Shown: one piece after another, positions 3,066-27,246 of the stretch
Layout of the letters: each line of letters starts with the position of its first letter
Position numbering within the stretch: position 1 is the stretch's first letter
Source: Hyphomicrobiales bacterium
Lineage (GTDB): Bacteria > Pseudomonadota > Alphaproteobacteria > Rhizobiales > Rhodomicrobiaceae
Assembly (NCBI GenBank): GCA_033764775.1
Contig: JANRIQ010000030.1
Location: forward strand, 109,701-141,700
Direction: 5' to 3'
Length of the DNA stretch: 32,000 nucleotides
Notes under the pieces: generated by a model
What the model saw: the letters and a program-made list of their open reading frames with translations, nothing else
What the model was told of the DNA's origin: nothing
Database searches by the model: none
Made by a program: the position numbers and the translations under genes

Positions 3066-3157
3066 GGAGTGGTGGCTGAGAGGCCGAAGGCACTCGTTTG
3101 CTAAATGAGCGGGCTCAGAAATGGGTCCCGGGGGTTCGAATCCCCCCCACTCCGCCA
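3066..3157 (+). tRNA. tRNA-Ser (anticodon GCU)
   Basis: Hand-folded cloverleaf. Acceptor GGAGTGG/CCACTCC. D arm GCT-GAGAGGCCGAA-GGC. Anticodon stem CTCGT/ATGAG with loop TTGCTAA (anticodon GCT at 3100-3102). 20-nt long variable arm. T arm GGGGG-TTCGAAT-CCCCC. Discriminator G and encoded CCA. Confidence 0.9.
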
Positions 3158-4774
3158 CTTCGGTATAAAACCGGGAACGCCGATTCCCGCCGTTTTCCCT
3201 CCCTTAGTAGCTACCAGCGTCCTCAACAGGACGCTTTTGCTGCCTTTGAGATAGATCGCGTCATCCGCGACCTCGACGTGCTGGGCGAAGGCCCGGACGT
3301 GTTCCCGCCGATAGCCGCCCTTTCCGAGCCGGAGCCGGGTGCGGGCTTCGCTCGCCAGTTCCCGCACGGCCGCGCCTGTGAGGCCCTGATGAGCCGCGCT
3401 TTTCAGCATGGCCTCGGTCCTTTCGGCGTCGGCCCGCGCCTGATCCCGAAGCGCCGTGAGGCCCGCGATGCGCTCGCCAAGGGCGGACTCGGCTGGGTCG
3501 AGCGAACCGGCTTCAATGGCGTCATAGAGACGCTTTAGGCGCATGTCGGCCTCGGCCGCTCGCTGGTTCAATTCTGCGATGTGCTGGCTGCGCCGCTCGA
3601 CGCTCTCCTGCCGGCGGTCCAGCAGCGAGGCGAGCACGTCTTCGATCCGCTCGGGGTCCAGTAGCCTTTCCTCGATATGGCTGACCACGATGCGGTCGAG
3701 CTTGTCCATGGGGATCGCACGGCCCTTGCAGCCGGTGTCACCCTGCCGCGCCCGGATCGAGCAGGCATAATAGCGATAGCGGCCGTTCTTGCCGGTGCGC
3801 AGCGTCATCGCGCCTCCGCAATTGCCGCAATGGCAAATGCCGGTCAGCAGGTTCGGGCCGCTGACGACGCGCGGCGGCGTCACCTTCGGATTGTTCACCT
3901 GCAAGCGCCTCTGCACGGCCTCGAATATCTCAAGGTCGATCAGCGGCGGCACGGGGACGGTGACGATTTCTTCCTCGGGCTTCACCTCGCCCTTTTTGGA
4001 GCGGCGATTGAAACGATGCTCACCGATATAGGTGCGGCGGGTCAGGATGCGGTGAAGCTGGCCGATGCCCCAACGTCCGCCGCTGCGGGTGAACATGCGG
4101 TTCCTGTTCAAGTAGCTGACGATGTTCTTGACGCCCATGGGGCCGGACGTGCCGTCGCCTTCCGTTGCAAGGCGGAAGATCAGCCGCACGGTGTCGGCGT
4201 GCAGCGGGTCGATTTCCAGCTTCTTCTTCATCTTCGCGCCGCGCTGCTCGGCATCGACGACACGGTAGCCGATGGGCGGCAGGGAGCCGTTCCAGAAGCC
4301 TTGCCGCGCGTTTTCCTTCAACGCCCGAATGACGTGCTTGCCGTTCTCCTTGGACTGGTATTCGTCGAACAGCGCCATGATCTGCCGCATCATGACGTGC
4401 ATGGGATCGTCGCCCATTTCCTGCGTGATGGAGACCAGCTTGACGCCGTTTTTGGCGAGCTTCCTGACGTTGAACTCCAGCTCGAAGTGATCGCGGAAAA
4501 AGCGGCTGAACGAATGGACCACAACCACATCGAAGGGCGCGGGCTTGGACGTGCCTGCCTCGATCATGCGTTGAAACTCGGGGCGGCGGTCATTGGTGGC
4601 GGACGCGCCGGCTTCCACGAAGGTTTCGACAAGCTGGTAGCCGCGCGACTGGCAATAGGCTTCGCCCTGCTTGCGCTGGTCGGGGATCGACACGTCATGC
4701 TCGGCCTGCCGCGTCGTGGAGACGCGCAGGTAGAGCGCGGCGCGCAAGGCGACATGAGGACTTTGCATATTCAC
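3101..4774 (-). CDS. large serine recombinase (ICE integrase candidate)
   Basis: It has an N-terminal resolvase catalytic domain (ALYLRVSTTRQ, VVVHSFSRFFRD), a recombinase domain, a Cys-rich zinc ribbon (CHCGNCGG...YYACSIRARQGDTGCKG) and a long coiled-coil tail. GTG 4774 lies 6 nt after AGGAGG (alternative ATG 4768). The TAG stop at 3103-3101 sits in the tRNA-Ser anticodon loop. Confidence 0.9.
   Translation of the reverse strand: MNMQSPHVALRAALYLRVSTTRQAEHDVSIPDQRKQGEAYCQSRGYQLVETFVEAGASATNDRRPEFQRMIEAGTSKPAPFDVVVVHSFSRFFRDHFELEFNVRKLAKNGVKLVSITQEMGDDPMHVMMRQIMALFDEYQSKENGKHVIRALKENARQGFWNGSLPPIGYRVVDAEQRGAKMKKKLEIDPLHADTVRLIFRLATEGDGTSGPMGVKNIVSYLNRNRMFTRSGGRWGIGQLHRILTRRTYIGEHRFNRRSKKGEVKPEEEIVTVPVPPLIDLEIFEAVQRRLQVNNPKVTPPRVVSGPNLLTGICHCGNCGGAMTLRTGKNGRYRYYACSIRARQGDTGCKGRAIPMDKLDRIVVSHIEERLLDPERIEDVLASLLDRRQESVERRSQHIAELNQRAAEADMRLKRLYDAIEAGSLDPAESALGERIAGLTALRDQARADAERTEAMLKSAAHQGLTGAAVRELASEARTRLRLGKGGYRREHVRAFAQHVEVADDAIYLKGSKSVLLRTLVATKGGKTAGIGVPGFIPKWRSGGDSNPRDPFLSPLI
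3172..3196 (+). terminator. weak terminator-like hairpin just 3' of tRNA-Ser
   Basis: CGGGAA-CGCCGA-TTCCCG (6-bp stem) is followed by CCGTTTT. It lies inside the 3' end of the recombinase ORF on the other strand. Confidence 0.3.
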
Positions 4775-5160
4775 GACCGGCCTCCTTTCGCCGTGCGGCG
4801 TTCTATCAGCGGCAATTCCAGCTCCACGCGGTCATGCAGCACTTTGGGAACGACCTTCTGGCCCTCGCCGGGGTCCATGCGGATCAGGCCGTAGCTCGCC
4901 ATCTTTTTGAGGGTTCGGGACAGGCTGGGCTTTGCCCGCCCCGTGATCCGCGACAGTTCCTCCAGCGAACCGGGCGACTGCTCGTCGATGACGCGCAGCA
5001 GCTCGCGGTTCCCGCTCGAAAGGAGCTGCGCGAAGGATTCCATGGATGTGAACCACACCTTCGGATCGTCGGCCGCCGGCTTTTCCTCGCCGCGCGCGAT
5101 CCGCATGGTGCGGGCCTTCATCTCGTCATAGCCGGCAATCCCGACTTTCAATGTGGTCAT
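4771..5160 (-). CDS. winged-HTH DNA-binding protein (antitoxin-like / MarR-like)
   Basis: 129 aa. The stretch WFTSMESFAQLLSSGNRELLRVI...LEELSRITGRAKPSLSRTLKKMASYGLI reads as a wHTH. ATGA-type overlaps occur with both neighbours. Confidence 0.6.
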   Translation of the reverse strand: MTTLKVGIAGYDEMKARTMRIARGEEKPAADDPKVWFTSMESFAQLLSSGNRELLRVIDEQSPGSLEELSRITGRAKPSLSRTLKKMASYGLIRMDPGEGQKVVPKVLHDRVELELPLIERRTAKGGRS

Positions 5161-5510
5161 GTTACGCCTCGCTCCTTCAACACCGCATCCACCGCCTGCC
5201 AGAAGTCGGCCAGCAGCGTGGCCGCATCCTCGTAGGCGTAGGGCTTCACGGTCTGGAAGCGATGCCGATGGTCCATCGGCTCGCCCCTCCTGCCTCGGCC
5301 GACCGGATGGGCGTTATCGAAGCCGACCAGCCGTTCGCCCGAAGGCCCGTGAAGCGTGAGCGAGTAATCGAGGCCGTGCGGCTTCTCCGGCGATGCCGGA
5401 ACGCGGGTGACAATGAACTTCACCCAATGGCCGCCCTCGGGATCGACAACGAGCACCTGTCCGTCGAGGTCCAGAAGCGTGTCGAGGCTCGGGTCACGAT
5501 CCTCGCTCAT
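5157..5510 (-). CDS. small protein resembling DUF6516/TumE-like toxin family (tentative)
   Basis: 117 aa, with protein-like composition (HWVKFIVTRV...YSLTLHGPSGERLVGFDNAH). The family call is from recollection only. ATGA overlaps occur on both sides. Confidence 0.45.
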   Translation of the reverse strand: MSEDRDPSLDTLLDLDGQVLVVDPEGGHWVKFIVTRVPASPEKPHGLDYSLTLHGPSGERLVGFDNAHPVGRGRRGEPMDHRHRFQTVKPYAYEDAATLLADFWQAVDAVLKERGVT

Positions 5511-5827
5511 GACTTACTGTTACCATGCGGTGTTAACGGTGGCAAGTCCTGAGCGTCAGGATCGTCGATTGGGCCGAACAGCCGGTCGAGCACGTCGCCG
5601 AAATACCGCTCGAAGATTTGCAGTTCTTCCTCAGTGATCGGCACCTTCTCGGGCCAGTCGTCGAAGACAGGCAACGACTCCACATCGACGATGCGAAGCG
5701 GCGAACTGCGGCGCTCCCGGCCGTCCGGCGTGGGTTCGTCGGCATAGTCGAAAAGATCGTCGGGAAGTGTCTCGGGGACCGGCTGTCGCGGTCGCCCTTT
5801 GCGGGCACGGCGGCGCTCTGCGCACAT
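5507..5827 (-). CDS. hypothetical acidic protein, first gene of the recombinase operon
   Basis: 106 aa. AAGGAGG lies 5 nt upstream of ATG 5827. The protein is acidic (DDWPEKVPITEEELQIFERYFGDVLDRLFG) with no domain recognised. Confidence 0.6.
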   Translation of the reverse strand: MCAERRRARKGRPRQPVPETLPDDLFDYADEPTPDGRERRSSPLRIVDVESLPVFDDWPEKVPITEEELQIFERYFGDVLDRLFGPIDDPDAQDLPPLTPHGNSKS

Positions 5828-5880
5828 GGAATCCTCCTTGGTTCGGTGTGGATTCCGGGGCGCTCAAGGCCCCGGAATTA

Positions 5881-5950
5881 GGCGAACCATGGAGGGCAGT
5901 CGGCGGCGTGTAGCGTGCCGCATTTGCGCCTATGCGCTGGCGGCACCCCT
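5881..5950 (-). promoter_or_regulatory. copy A of conserved nested-hairpin leader/operator element
   Basis: Copy A is about 90% identical by hand alignment to 25748-25817, and the 40-nt block 5910-5949 is identical to 25777-25816. It contains GTGCCGC-ATTT-GCGC-CTAT-GCGC-TG-GCGGCAC. It is followed toward the gene by hairpin 5852-5878, then SD and ATG. Confidence 0.5.
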
Positions 5951-5963
5951 GCCGGGATGGGAC

Positions 5964-20722: not shown

Positions 20723-22777
20723 TCAGAGTGAAAGGCCGCGCGACCGCCCCAACTGCCACGACACCGATCCGCCCTGCACGACCCCCGTAACCTCGCGGCC
20801 GAGCTGGCGGTCGATGACCGGCCGCCACGGGACAAGGGTGAACTCATGGGATTGCTCGACCAAGGCGAACTTGCCGCTCGATAGCTGCACGGTGCCGGTG
20901 AACTTGCCGCTGACGTTCTCGCCGTCCGTGGCGGCGCGGAACGGCAGGCCCTTGTTCTCGGCCATCTCCGCACCGACGCGGGCAACCTCGCGCTCGCGCA
21001 AGGTGGCGAGAAGGTTGCGGCGGTAGAATATGCGGCCGTTCCGCGCTCGGGTGGCGTCGCCCTGTTCGATATGGTGTTCGCGGCGCTGGTCCATCGCCTC
21101 GCGCACCTGCTGGCCGAAGCCGGCCGGCGCAAGGTCGGCCGTTTCGCCATGGACCAATCGCCGGTCCAGCCATGTCGCGCCGTCCGATCCGATCTGCCTT
21201 TGCAGATCGACCGGGGAAAGCACGCGAACGCTGGCCTGCCGGTCACGGCCGGCGTCATAGGCGGCTGCACGGCTGACCAGATCATCGGGGATGCGCCATT
21301 GGTCAGCGTCGATCCGCTCGACGATCCCGGCGCGGCGCAATGCCTCCAGCCGGCGCACATGAGCATCGACATAGCCCTCATAATCGCCGCCGGGAACGCG
21401 GCCCTCGAATTTCGCCTGCTCCAGATGACGGCTCGGCCGATAGATGCCGTCCTCGGCGATGGCCGATATGCTGCGGTCGGACGGTCGGGCCGTCGCCTCG
21501 GCCGGACCGATCTGGACGACGCTGCCGATGCGGGCATCCTCCAGCCGCTCGGGCGCGATGCCGGCGATGTGGTGCGTCCTGCCGTCTATCCCGTCCACCA
21601 CGATTGTCAGGTTCTCCCCTAACTCGTCGGACAGGTGCTTGTCCAAGACGCGGCCGACGATGGGCGTCTCGGGCGCTCCGTCATGGATTTGGAAGCTCAT
21701 GGGATCACGTTCGCCACCCTGCGGGCCGAGCGCCTTCTGCATGGTGCGGATAATGTCGCCCCGCTCGCCAAGCTCGCGCAGGGCCGGCTCCATGTCCTTG
21801 CTCAATTCCCAAACGGCGGGCGCGTGCTCGGTCGCCAGCCCCATCTTCTCCAGCTTGCCGAGACGGCGCAGGCGCAGCGTCCGCTCGAACTGCCGCCTCG
21901 GCTCTGCCGGTTCATGGCGCAGGTCGAGGAAACGGGCATCGGCTTCGTCGGCCATGGCGCGGTCGATGCGGGTGAAACGGTCTTGGTCGATTTCGGCCGA
22001 CAGCTTGCGGGTCTGCTCGATCTCGGTGACGGGGCCGAGTTCCAGACTGGCAAGCTCGCTGGCGCGCTCGCGCAGGCCGGCGGAAAGGTAGTCGCCGTTG
22101 ATGACTAGATCCCCGCCCGTGTCGTCGCGGCCGTTGACGACGATATGCACATGGGGATGGCCGGTGTTGTAGTGATTGACGGCAACCCAATCGAGTTTCG
22201 TGCCGAGGTCCGCTTCCACCTGTTGCATGAAATCGCGGGTGTAGGCCGTGAGGTCCGATAGCTCCGCGCCATCCTCGGGCGAGACGATGAATCTGAATTG
22301 GTGGCGGTCGTCCTTGCCGCGATCAAGGAAGGCGTCGCCATCCGCGCGATCCTCGGTCGCCGAATAGAGCCGGCCCCGCTCGCCGTCGCGCGAGGTTCCG
22401 TCGCGCTGGACATAGCGCAGATGCGCGCGGGCACGGCCGCCCTTCCATGCAGCCCGGACGCTGCGCTGCTTGACGATCACGCGGCGGCTGCCCGGCTGGC
22501 GATGATGCCATTGGCCGGAGATGTTCCGGGCGCGCACGAAGCTCGCGCCCCGGCCGCGCTTCACGCCCTTGCCGCTGGCGACCACGGCACGGGACCGGCC
22601 CGGCGATGACGGGCGGGCGGATGACGGCATGGAAGGATCGCGGGAGGCCGCTGCCTGATGCTGCCGGGTGATCTTCTTGACCTGCGTGAAAAAGCTCTTG
22701 GTCTTGCCAGCCTTCGGCGTGTCGGATCGGATGCGGCCGGGCTTCGGACGGAAGCGGTTTTCGTCGTCGGCGCTCAA
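20723..22777 (-). CDS. conjugative relaxase (MobA/VirD2-type N-domain plus DUF3363-like C-domain; RlxS/TraI-like)
   Basis: 684 aa with the histidine triad NHYNTGHPHVHIVVNG and N-terminus (M)SADDENRFRPKPGRIRSD typical of this relaxase type. TTG start at 22777 with GGAG 8 nt upstream. Confidence 0.9.
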   Translation of the reverse strand: MSADDENRFRPKPGRIRSDTPKAGKTKSFFTQVKKITRQHQAAASRDPSMPSSARPSSPGRSRAVVASGKGVKRGRGASFVRARNISGQWHHRQPGSRRVIVKQRSVRAAWKGGRARAHLRYVQRDGTSRDGERGRLYSATEDRADGDAFLDRGKDDRHQFRFIVSPEDGAELSDLTAYTRDFMQQVEADLGTKLDWVAVNHYNTGHPHVHIVVNGRDDTGGDLVINGDYLSAGLRERASELASLELGPVTEIEQTRKLSAEIDQDRFTRIDRAMADEADARFLDLRHEPAEPRRQFERTLRLRRLGKLEKMGLATEHAPAVWELSKDMEPALRELGERGDIIRTMQKALGPQGGERDPMSFQIHDGAPETPIVGRVLDKHLSDELGENLTIVVDGIDGRTHHIAGIAPERLEDARIGSVVQIGPAEATARPSDRSISAIAEDGIYRPSRHLEQAKFEGRVPGGDYEGYVDAHVRRLEALRRAGIVERIDADQWRIPDDLVSRAAAYDAGRDRQASVRVLSPVDLQRQIGSDGATWLDRRLVHGETADLAPAGFGQQVREAMDQRREHHIEQGDATRARNGRIFYRRNLLATLREREVARVGAEMAENKGLPFRAATDGENVSGKFTGTVQLSSGKFALVEQSHEFTLVPWRPVIDRQLGREVTGVVQGGSVSWQLGRSRGLSL

Positions 22778-25699: not shown

Positions 25700-25747
25700 G
25701 GATCACCTCCAGTCGGGATTGGGCTGCCGGGGGCGGCAGCGGACTGT

Positions 25748-25817
25748 GGCGAACCATGGCGAGGGATCGGCGGCGCGTAGCGTGCCGCATTTGCGCCTAT
25801 GCGCTGGCGGCACCCCC
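25748..25817 (-). promoter_or_regulatory. copy B of conserved nested-hairpin leader/operator element
   Basis: See copy A. The nested inverted repeat is at 25782-25813. The downstream hairpin is at 25723-25740 (GCTGCCG-GGGG-CGGCAGC), followed by SD and ATG. Confidence 0.5.
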
Positions 25818-26158
25818 CTCGGGCGCGGCGTGGCGAATAGTGAGGGATACCACCGGCTCGATGCCTGCCGCGCCGAATAGGCAAAGACAATCGCACGCCG
25901 TTCGGCTAAGAGTGGCAGCGGAGCAGACGCGCTGCTCTGGGGCGTCGAAACCCCTGACTAGTGGTTGTTGCCGGCCGAAACGGCAACGCACTCCTTGACC
26001 TATGGTCGGGGAGCCTGTGGCGTATACAACAGGCTTTCCGAGCTAAAGGCCATGGGGCCGTCTAGTCACGGTTTCGAACTCCCCGATCACCAAGAGTCAG
26101 AGAGAATCGTTTGCGGGGGCGCACCGCAAGCAAACTTTCTCGGATGTGGGGAAAGACT

Positions 26159-26446
26159 ATGCGGGTTCCCGTCGAACTCGATCCCGATGTGGACGACGAA
26201 GCGCCAACCGGCGACGGCATCACTGTCTATGACGAACGGCATTTCGTGACCTATCTGCGTTTGCTGGATGCAAAGGCCGAGGGCGCGGACTGGAAGGAAG
26301 TCGCGCAGATCGTGCTGCACCGTGATCCGGCCGCCGAGGAAATGCGGACCTATCGTTGCTGGCAAAGCCATCTCGAACGCGCGCAATGGCTTTCGCGCAA
26401 GGGTTATCGAAAGATTCTGGAGCAGACCGCCGCCAATAAGGCGTGA
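26159..26446 (+). CDS. single-domain DUF2285 protein (QseM-like antiactivator candidate)
   Basis: 95 aa from ATG 26159, with GGGGA upstream (alternative ATG 26144). It is internally homologous to the C-terminus of the adjacent FseA-like protein: YLRLLDAKAEGADWKEVAQIVL vs SMRALDARLRGESYRTIAEVLL, and RKGYRKIL vs RGGYRLLL. Confidence 0.65.
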   Translation: MRVPVELDPDVDDEAPTGDGITVYDERHFVTYLRLLDAKAEGADWKEVAQIVLHRDPAAEEMRTYRCWQSHLERAQWLSRKGYRKILEQTAANKA

Positions 26447-26462
26447 GACAATCGCCCCTCGG

Positions 26463-27092
26463 TCAACGCTTGTCGGGCTTGATCGGATAGTGGAGCAACA
26501 GGCGATAGCCTCCGCGCATCATCTTGATACCGTGCGCGACCAGGCGGCGGGCCTTGTTCTTACGCGGGTCGCCCTCAAAGTCCTCTTTGGTGCCGCGAAA
26601 GCCTAGTAGGACTTCGGCGATGGTGCGGTAACTTTCGCCGCGCAGCCGAGCGTCGAGCGCGCGCATGGACAGGATAAGCCATTGCCGGAGCTGGGCGGGA
26701 ACGGCTCGGAAGTCGGGGCCGGGCACGCGGCCGTTGAGAGACCGCCATAAACGGCGGGCGGCATGGGCGCGTAGCTCCAGAAAGGAATCCATCGGCAGGG
26801 TGACGGCATAGAACGTGGCTGCGTCGGGCACCGCCTCGGGCAGCCAGAATTGGTGCGCAACGCCATCCACCTGCCAGATGCCGTGCCAACCATCGGACGC
26901 GCGGCGCATGTCGAGGCCGTCAAGATGCGCAAGCGTCAATGTCGGTTCGGTGTCGTCGTCCTTATGATCGACCGGCGACAGCATCACGGCTTGCGGTTGA
27001 AGGCTCGGACTCCAGATCGGCGATTCCCGGTCATGCGGCGCGTCGGGATCGCACGGGAAATCGTAAACCCCAACGATCCGCGAACGCTTCAA
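26463..27092 (-). CDS. FseA-like activator, DUF2285 portion (+1 frame, no own ATG/SD)
   Basis: The frame is open from 27116 to the stop at 26463. The DUF2285-like C-terminus is ...RTIAEVLLGFRGTKEDFEGDPRKNKARRLVAHGIKMMRGGYRLLL. The track start at 27092 is a TTG inside the upstream ORF. Confidence 0.7.
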   Translation of the reverse strand: MKRSRIVGVYDFPCDPDAPHDRESPIWSPSLQPQAVMLSPVDHKDDDTEPTLTLAHLDGLDMRRASDGWHGIWQVDGVAHQFWLPEAVPDAATFYAVTLPMDSFLELRAHAARRLWRSLNGRVPGPDFRAVPAQLRQWLILSMRALDARLRGESYRTIAEVLLGFRGTKEDFEGDPRKNKARRLVAHGIKMMRGGYRLLLHYPIKPDKR

Positions 27093-27246
27093 GCGCGCGG
27101 CCGGTCGGCTGTCGATTCAGCGCCATGGTCTGGAAATCCTGACGATAATCGTCATTCCGACGCAGGTATTCCCATGCGAAGCCGGCGGCCGGAATGTTCT
27201 TCGCGTGCCTGTATGCCGCCGGCAAACGCCAGTCGATGCTAAGCAT
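27031..27246 (-). CDS. FseA-like activator, N-terminal DUF6499-like portion (0 frame)
   Basis: ATG 27246 lies 7 nt after GGAGG. The sequence MLSIDWRLPAAYRHAKNIPAAGFAWEYLRRNDDYRQDF matches the DUF6499-type N-terminus. The TGA stop is at 27033-27031. Confidence 0.7.
   Translation of the reverse strand: MLSIDWRLPAAYRHAKNIPAAGFAWEYLRRNDDYRQDFQTMALNRQPTGRALEAFADRWGLRFPVRSRRAA
27054..27060 (-). other. candidate +1 frameshift heptamer T-TTC-CCG
   Basis: The 0-frame reads CGA TTT CCC GTG. The +1 frame reads TTC CCG TGC. Either a Phe or a Pro slip gives ...WGLRF-PCDPD... Confidence 0.4.

Follow-up and report, generated by a model that had tools for sequence, protein, structure and literature searches.

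In ICEMlSymR7A, the promoter of rdfS (PrdfS) carries an FseA box, GGCGAA-N16-TTCGCC, whose half-sites lie at -67 to -62 and at -45 to -40, immediately upstream of the -35 element (PMC10359603). The box is defined as a pair of inverted hexamers that are 15 to 16 bp apart and about 22 bp, or two helical turns, from center to center, and only its central two bases (CG) are highly conserved across 439 PrdfS sequences (PMC10359603). In R7A, RdfS binds to its own promoter at a site 3' of the FseA box, and it is also an activator of the integrase promoter (PMC11963761). In addition, a +1 slip site composed of a G-rich tract and UUUC has been described in msi172/msi171 of R7A (PMC4755241). Recombination genes are coupled to the FseA-triggered transfer state both in R7A (PintS) and in the tripartite ICEMcSym1271 (PrdfG/PrdfM), where the connection is a serial cascade that runs from FseA to RdfS and then to integrase or RDF promoters (PMC11963761, PMC5882170). 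PrdfS is the only FseA target in the literature searched, which took in subscription papers only in part, and no second FseA-box target is described there; the ICE papers on Sphingopyxis and Novosphingobium within that literature are not about this regulatory system. In SXT/R391 (SetCD boxes) and in ICEclc (BisDC), one element-encoded activator uses the same operator before the excision and transfer operons, and the activator families and operator sequences of these systems are unrelated to those considered here. We analyzed a stretch of 32,000 nucleotides from a Hyphomicrobiales bacterium (hereafter, the window) in which two copies of a putative promoter with FseA-box-like geometry precede an excision/transfer operon and the operon of a large serine recombinase.

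A direct repeat upstream of two operons of a compact ICE

The initial annotation of the window had reported an identity of 40 nt between two sites in the same orientation, 19,867 bp apart, and the sequence confirmed all three points: positions 5910 to 5949 are identical to positions 25777 to 25816 in direct orientation. It had also proposed a comparison of the window with itself. BLAST recovered the repeat as a 77-nt match of 88.3% identity (5873 to 5949 versus 25740 to 25816; E = 2e-21), which was the sole non-self match in the window at E ≤ 0.01, and a repeat search of the window returned the same pair as its largest repeat family, a direct repeat of 89 nt with 84% identity (5868 to 5956 and 25735 to 25823). 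The 32-nt inverted-repeat box of the repeat occurs without mismatch at two sites in the window only, namely, copy 1 and copy 2; the other matches to the box at up to 3 mismatches look like chance occurrences, of which 1.6 are expected. The repeat is real and far beyond chance.

The genes concerned are all on the minus strand, and both copies therefore lie 5' of their genes (Table 1). The 40-nt core ends 82 nt from the ATG of orf106 (5827) and 77 nt from that of the rdfS homologue (25699), and the conserved TTCGCC end is 53 nt and 48 nt, respectively, from the same codons. As had been claimed, the copy at 5.9 kb (copy 1) precedes a four-gene operon that ends in a large serine recombinase, and the copy at 25.8 kb (copy 2) precedes an RdfS homologue, the protein of which matches the PDB entry "Recombination Directionality Factor RdfS" (8DGL; E = 6e-10).

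Table 1. Positions of the operators, promoter blocks, leader hairpins, and genes discussed in the text (coordinates of the window)
Feature	Position	Strand	Description
Large serine recombinase, 557 aa	3101..4774	-	PF00239 + PF07508 + PF13408, all above cutoffs
Winged-helix protein (HVO_A0114 family)	4771..5160	-	Pfam PF25212, 64.7 bits
TumE-like (DUF6516) toxin homologue	5157..5510	-	Pfam PF20126, 33.3 bits versus cutoff of 23.4
orf106	5507..5827	-	First gene of integrase operon; conserved family, no Pfam or NCBIfam match
Leader hairpin, copy 1	5852..5878	-	AATTCCGGGGC-N7-GCCCCGGAATT; fold and compensatory pair changes
Promoter block, copy 1	5881..5949	-	GGGG + box + GCTAC + CGCCGCCGA + CCCTCCATGGTTCGCC; self-BLAST, class consensus
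Operator, copy 1	5915..5946	-	GTGCCGC-N18-GCGGCAC = hexamers GCCGCC-N16-TGCGGC, 5' of orf106; exact match to box pattern
RdfS homologue, 89 aa	25430..25699	-	HTH_17 winged helix, PF12728; first gene of excision/transfer operon
Leader hairpin, copy 2	25723..25740	-	GCTGCCG-CCCC-CGGCAGC; fold z-score -4.5, compensatory changes
Promoter block, copy 2	25748..25816	-	Self-BLAST, class consensus
Operator, copy 2	25782..25813	-	5' of rdfS homologue; exact match to box pattern
QseM-like antiactivator	26159..26446	+	PDB 7UQT, E = 6e-18; PF10074 weak
FseA-like activator gene, split	26463..27246	-	DUF6499 ORF 27246->27031 + DUF2285 ORF 27092->26463

The operon behind copy 1, which begins 10 nt past the stop codon of a DUF2274 gene, consists of four minus-strand ORFs joined by 4-nt stop/start overlaps (5827->5507, 5510->5157, 5160->4771, and 4774->3101). 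A protein search returned 322 homologues of the first of these, orf106, and its AlphaFold model is mostly disordered, with a single helix at residues 66 to 84 and a mean pLDDT of 65. Its position makes orf106 a candidate for the directionality factor of the large serine recombinase. The second and third genes resemble TumE-TumA (PMC10584680) in that a TumE/DUF6516 homologue adjoins a DNA-binding winged-helix protein; in contrast to that system, the candidate pair of the window sits between orf106 and the serine recombinase, with overlapping stop and start codons and behind a predicted FseA-type promoter. The HVO_A0114 protein is a candidate TumA-type antitoxin or regulator. The recombinase contains the Resolvase, Recombinase, and Zn_ribbon_recom (zinc beta-ribbon) domains that define it as a serine recombinase, and NCBIfam indicates similarity to CcrB and XisF; NCBIfam holds no name for the orf106, TumE-like, RdfS-like, FseA-like, and QseM-like proteins. 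A gene for tRNA-Ser(GCT) lies at 3066 to 3157 on the plus strand, and the recombinase ORF runs 54 nt into it on the opposite strand (3101 to 3160), with the C-terminal tail ...WRSGGDSNPRDPFLSPLI encoded by the antisense of the 3' half of the tRNA gene. This overlap probably places the left junction of the element inside tRNA-Ser or at its 3' end, and the C terminus of the recombinase would change on excision.

On the 3' side of the rdfS homologue are genes for DUF2840, a TraF-type S26 peptidase, and a lytic transglycosylase (SLT), followed by ORFs that have the size and order expected of relaxase, TraG, and the trb type IV secretion system (T4SS), as judged from the ORF list and annotated relatives; DUF2274 at the end of this transfer block was confirmed by Pfam. 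On the 5' side of copy 2 are the QseM-like gene and the FseA-like gene, the two halves of which are overlapping ORFs in different frames and correspond to PF20109 (DUF6499) and PF10074 (DUF2285). A candidate +1 frameshift site, UGGGGU..UUUC, is located at about 27057 to 27075, where the codons cgu ugg ggu uua for RWGL are followed by cga uuu c. Beyond the FseA-like gene are nuoD and other housekeeping genes. Like ICEMlSymR7A, the element thus encodes a DUF6499 plus DUF2285 FseA with a UUUC frameshift site as well as QseM and RdfS homologues, and these homologues together with the trb block identify it as a compact ICE of about 24 kb (roughly 3.1 to 27.3 kb) that belongs to the ICEMlSymR7A/trb-T4SS family.

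Operator, core promoter, and 5' leader

Read on the minus strand, both copies have the order GGGG-TGCCGCC-AGCGCATAGGCGCAAA-TGCGGCAC-GCTAC-(R)CGCCGCCGA-...-CCATGGTTCGCC. The hexamers GCCGCC and TGCGGC have 16 bp between them, and their central CG dinucleotides are 22 bp apart; this spacing gives the operator the geometry of the FseA box, with different half-sites, and we predict that it is bound by FseA. Inverted hexamers 16 bp apart, a central CG, and a weak promoter before rdfS are all shared with PrdfS of ICEMlSymR7A (PMC10359603, PMC11963761). The window differs from R7A in its half-sites, which are GCCGCC/TGCGGC (arms GTGCCGC/GCGGCAC) instead of GGCGAA/TTCGCC, and in having a second copy before the recombinase module. 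Alignment of the window copies with the R7A PrdfS sequence, which we rebuilt from published oligonucleotides, was ambiguous, and the likeness is claimed for geometry and not as base-by-base homology. Since the published logo highly conserves the central CG only, we treat the half-site difference as a lineage variant; copy 2 is orthologous to the known PrdfS/FseA-box promoter and has half-sites specific to its lineage. The half-site variant GTGCCGTC is present in loci L128 and L144 and in pYP1.

Transcription is predicted to start at about 5877 to 5886 for copy 1 and at about 25744 to 25753 for copy 2. Three estimates were used, namely, the distance in R7A, homology to the R7A sequence GCCGATCCTCGC (also rebuilt from the published oligonucleotides), and the alphaproteobacterial -10-like CTCCAT, and all three fall 31 to 40 nt past the box. 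The similarity between the two copies, as well as that between the classes of related loci described below, stops 30 to 40 nt past the box, which fits the start distance in R7A, about 40 nt from the proximal hexamer. Because similarity fades in the predicted start zone, the common part is an operator plus core promoter, and the term "leader" that the initial annotation had applied to the repeat is incorrect. A promoter scan detected no consensus sigma-70 promoter at either copy, which is expected of an activator-dependent promoter yet is not positive evidence for one. No terminator or T-tract was found by scanning at either copy or between DUF2274 and copy 1, which means that the integrase operon might additionally be transcribed by read-through out of the trb operon.

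In relatives retrieved by protein similarity, the arms of the box are constant and the spacer is variable. The inner palindrome of the spacer (GCGC..GCGC) gave 221 paired cells versus a shuffle mean of 219, and 246 of 1,000 shuffles reached the observed value. Conserved arms around a spacer that varies without compensatory pairing are the signature of a protein-binding site. The repeat might instead act in a folded state, either as an RNA hairpin (a terminator, processing site, or leader) or as a single-strand promoter in transferred DNA, and some properties are in keeping with this: the 44-nt core as a single strand has a predicted fold of -23.4 kcal/mol (z-scores of -2.7 and -3.9), copy 1 is close to the DUF2274 stop codon, and a recombinase needed early in the recipient is a plausible client for a single-strand promoter (Frpo/ssi elements). 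We nonetheless regard action as a folded element as improbable, given that the inner palindrome is not maintained by compensatory changes, that no gene directly 5' of copy 2 runs in its direction and could be terminated by it (qseM is divergent), that T-tract and terminator are both lacking at the copies, and that known single-strand promoters are much longer than the element. Consistent with this, an Rfam scan of the window at gathering thresholds yielded tRNA-Ser only and no match at the repeat.

The leader sequences that follow the two copies are unalike, and the only feature common to them is a hairpin at an analogous 5' position (Table 1). RNAalifold found no structure in MAFFT-aligned leaders, the loop lengths of which vary, and an anchored stem count with a shuffle control was used instead. 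By this count, mean pairing was 7.1 of 8 in 62 distinct orf106 leaders (5.2 in shuffles) and 6.4 of 8 in 39 distinct rdfS leaders (4.9 in shuffles). Compensatory exchanges were TA<->CG, CG<->GC, and GC<->CG in the orf106 leaders and TA<->CG and CG<->TA in the rdfS leaders. A transcribed leader or cis-regulatory RNA was also considered as an identity for the repeat and was rejected, as the sequences near the start codons are unalike and the repeat itself has neither structural covariation nor an Rfam match.

Distribution and age of the promoter pair

To survey relatives, one genome per species was scanned with the pattern GGTGCCGCC-N15-17-TGCGGCACGCTAC. This yielded at least 119 matching stretches, and the spacer was 16 nt in all of those listed even though 15 to 17 nt was allowed. 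Among the matches listed, the first gene after the box was RdfS-like in 57, all of which share the box of operator copy 2, orf106-like in 50, and neither in the remaining 12, most of which have an AlpA-family gene (PF05930) that follows DUF2274 and sits beside a convergent P4-type tyrosine integrase at guaA. The AlpA class (loci L021, 1482 to 3128; L064, 1996 to 3643; L014; L031; L042; L054; L080; and L092) is a third target of the box, and its hairpin leader is similar to those of the other classes. A pooled set of all fetched loci, including a metagenome set and the window, with an AlpA query added, comprised 58 rdfS, 86 orf106, 8 AlpA, and 4 other loci.

Conservation of the arms in the genome scan is forced by the search pattern, and only the sets retrieved by protein are unbiased in this respect. 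The metagenome set was retrieved by orf106 peptide motifs only, with no DNA pattern. Among metagenomic orf106 homologues of at least 52% identity with enough upstream sequence, 30 of 32 had the box (at most 2 mismatches), and the distance from box to start codon in this set was 79 to 86 nt, with one at 64 nt. Over all classes, the corresponding distance was 77 to 87 nt for rdfS, 79 to 84 nt for nearly all orf106 loci, and 84 to 85 nt for seven of eight AlpA loci. The upstream regions of metagenomic orf106 homologues below about 52% identity were without this version of the box. Several of the distant loci L180, L184, L192, L170, and L166 have other upstream motifs ending in GCGCTACGC, such as CCCTATCTGCGCTACGC, which may be operators of other FseA lineages.

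The surroundings of the box differ by class. Upstream of rdfS-type boxes are fseA and a divergent qseM in 46 to 54 of 58 loci; orf106-type boxes have TrbI and DUF2274 on their 5' side at 70 of 86 loci and fseA at 0 of 86. On the 3' side, orf106 is followed by HVO_A0114 and the large serine recombinase in 78 of 86 loci; TumE is recognizable in 58 of those and not recognizable in 20 of the 86 related operons. The four-gene module was identified by protein identity alone in Aureimonas, Paracoccus aerodenitrificans, and Agrobacterium vitis, and in the upstream region of these three genomes the arms, GCTAC, and CCATGnTTCG do not change, in contrast to the spacer. The A. vitis element has 7.4 kb of cargo on the opposite strand between DUF2274 and the orf106 module, and the box is retained; the box therefore belongs to a promoter in its own right and cannot be a mere extension of the trb operon.

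Locus L209, which is the Enterobacter hormaechei plasmid pCAV1668-85 (NZ_CP011583.1, 6255 to 22706), a clinical IncR plasmid, carries a traG/trb cluster of alphaproteobacterial type with DUF2274, the box, orf106, DUF6516, an HTH protein, and the serine recombinase. The cluster adjoins floR, tet(G), sul1, qacEdelta1, and aadA1, and the protein of this locus is also present on four more E. hormaechei plasmids and one Klebsiella oxytoca plasmid. In locus L040, from a Pseudolabrys MAG (1132 to 2400), the box is directly followed by the gene for the winged-helix protein and by a recombinase with an internal deletion, and orf106 and TumE are missing; the recombinase still overlaps a tRNA-like tail, and the locus is a decayed derivative. 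The region on plasmid p2 of Paracoccus sp. TOH is a rearranged mosaic and is unusable for studying half-site co-variation between the promoters.

Two boxes were present on nine contigs among the matches listed, and eight of these were rdfS plus orf106 pairs. All eight pairs have the layout of the window, with both boxes in the same orientation, rdfS upstream, and a separation of 21.0 to 28.7 kb. Kaistia adipata (NZ_AUHO01000007.1; loci L038 and L051) has two orf106-type boxes at positions 20,901 and 51,725, convergent and 30.8 kb apart, which points to a tail-to-tail insertion of two elements or remnants.

Across eight paired elements, the copies are 77 to 85% identical over 78 nt. Their longest exact run ranges from 19 to 40 nt, being 19 to 30 nt in most relatives and 40 nt in the window and in Mesorhizobium sp. 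Z1-4. Within pairs, the arms are always the same; the spacers differ at several bases in six of the eight, differ at one base in one, and are identical in one. Moreover, certain bases are specific to the class across genera (rdfS-type GATCCCTCGCCATGG..CCACAG versus orf106-type CCCTCCATG..CCTAAT). The spacer differences within pairs and the class-specific bases indicate that the copies are old paralogues under separate purifying selection. A recent segmental duplication was rejected as their origin, since 8 of 8 same-contig cases, which come from different genera, contain the pair with the identity and the class-specific bases given above.

These data also bear on two suggestions of the initial annotation. 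It had allowed that the repeat might be a functionless local duplication absent from syntenic relatives, and the repeat is instead found in relatives across many genera. It had further suggested that the two copies could mediate loss of the T4SS-relaxase block by homologous recombination. With 40 nt of identity this is possible in principle, but a deletion derivative, in which fseA or qseM would be directly upstream of orf106, was found at 0 of 86 orf106-type loci. That the pair is nothing more than a recent duplication or recombination scar without a regulatory role, with homologous deletion of this block as its main effect, would account for the perfect direct identity on either side of a 19.9-kb block in the window. 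Such an origin is very improbable in light of the fixed gene distances at which both copies are kept across dozens of genera, the class-specific differences, the unlike spacers of most elements, and the lack of a deletion derivative at any of these loci.

Predicted wiring of the two operons

We consider it likely that the two copies are paralogous activator-dependent promoters of one ICE, through which an FseA-like activator fires both operons in parallel. The initial annotation had proposed a shared regulator and a coordinated regulon; the comparative data make a common regulator very likely, and we infer, with good support, that FseA control is common to both operons, its binding to the operators being predicted. 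The copy before the recombinase operon is a further operator/promoter of the known FseA-box type, which implies parallel and not serial wiring. According to this model, the FseA-like activator would be produced only after a +1 ribosomal frameshift, which would limit its amount, and would be restrained by the QseM-like antiactivator. An FseA dimer would then bind both operators and switch on the rdfS-DUF2840-traF-SLT-...-relaxase operon and, in parallel, the orf106-TumE-wHTH-large serine recombinase operon, so that cells committed to transfer would make the recombination module alongside excision and transfer functions. At each copy, a poor -35/-10 region directly follows the operator, and the transcript would begin with a stable 5' hairpin, with the start codon about 80 nt past the operator.

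The coupling of recombination genes to the FseA-triggered transfer state would thus be shared with R7A and ICEMcSym1271, but in the window the operator itself is duplicated, which implies direct and parallel control in place of a serial cascade. The recombinase of the window is a large serine recombinase, and a sister class has an AlpA-like gene next to a tyrosine integrase. Direct control of a recombinase operon by FseA is without experimental precedent, given that the integrase of R7A is activated indirectly, via RdfS (PMC11963761).

Another backbone protein, for which RdfS is the best candidate, might bind both copies instead of or besides FseA, in which case the integrase operon would be subject to an RdfS cascade or feedback. 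In R7A, RdfS binds PrdfS_4, an oligonucleotide with GTTCGCC that overlaps the core promoter, and the block common to the window copies reaches about 35 nt past the box and includes the invariant CCATGGTTCGCC. Furthermore, RdfS homologues in the clade share about 97% identity across genera, as would fit conserved DNA targets. The strongest conservation, however, is in the two inverted arms, which have exactly the spacing of an FseA box, and the RdfS sites of R7A are not described as inverted hexamers spaced by 22 bp; binding by such a protein is therefore an unlikely explanation of the repeat. The two readings are compatible, in that FseA could act on the box and RdfS on the downstream block. 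RdfS may also act on CCATGGTTCGCC in the window, given that the R7A protein binds the core promoter of its own gene; this would provide feedback at both promoters, on top of parallel activation by FseA.

In the AlpA sister class, the box precedes an excisionase-type gene by a tyrosine integrase. This strengthens the idea that recombination is coupled to transfer and makes orf106 a candidate directionality factor. More tentatively, it is possible that the box, the weak promoter, and the hairpin form a portable "excision-switch cassette" that is placed about 80 nt from the start codon before rdfS, orf106, or an AlpA-like gene, that orf106 is an unrecognized directionality factor of the serine recombinase, and that FseA sets the direction of recombination directly and not via RdfS.

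If parallel activation is correct, the cascade described for FseA would give way to a regulon with two promoters in a widespread ICE clade of Alphaproteobacteria, and a clinical Enterobacter resistance plasmid has acquired one member of this clade. The second promoter adds to an established system and does not overturn it, and the arrangement is clear, widespread, and directly testable: both promoters are predicted to respond to fused FseA and to be blocked by QseM. The orf106 protein and the TumE/winged-helix pair are candidates for control of excision direction in serine-recombinase ICEs.

A separate feature, a highly structured noncoding element of about 220 nt (25906 to 26128, plus strand), separates the PrdfS box from the qseM-like gene. 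About 270 plasmid records (Rhizobium, Agrobacterium, Bradyrhizobium, Bosea, Afipia, and others) match this element alone, at 78 to 89% identity, with no annotated feature beneath the matches. Its core has a sub-threshold match to sRNA-Xcc1 (RF02221; 37.9 bits versus a gathering threshold of 53; E = 5e-5), and an alignment of five sequences has a predicted fold of several hairpins with a few compensatory pairs. The element is present in 46 of 57 rdfS-type loci, where it lies about 55 to 95 nt upstream of the box and is oriented toward qseM, and it is absent at all orf106 or AlpA boxes examined. On plasmids, the element is found upstream of other genes, such as a hypothetical protein and RES toxin pair or an HTH regulator. 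The element may be a qseM leader or sRNA, or it may be a leading-region element resembling a single-strand promoter.
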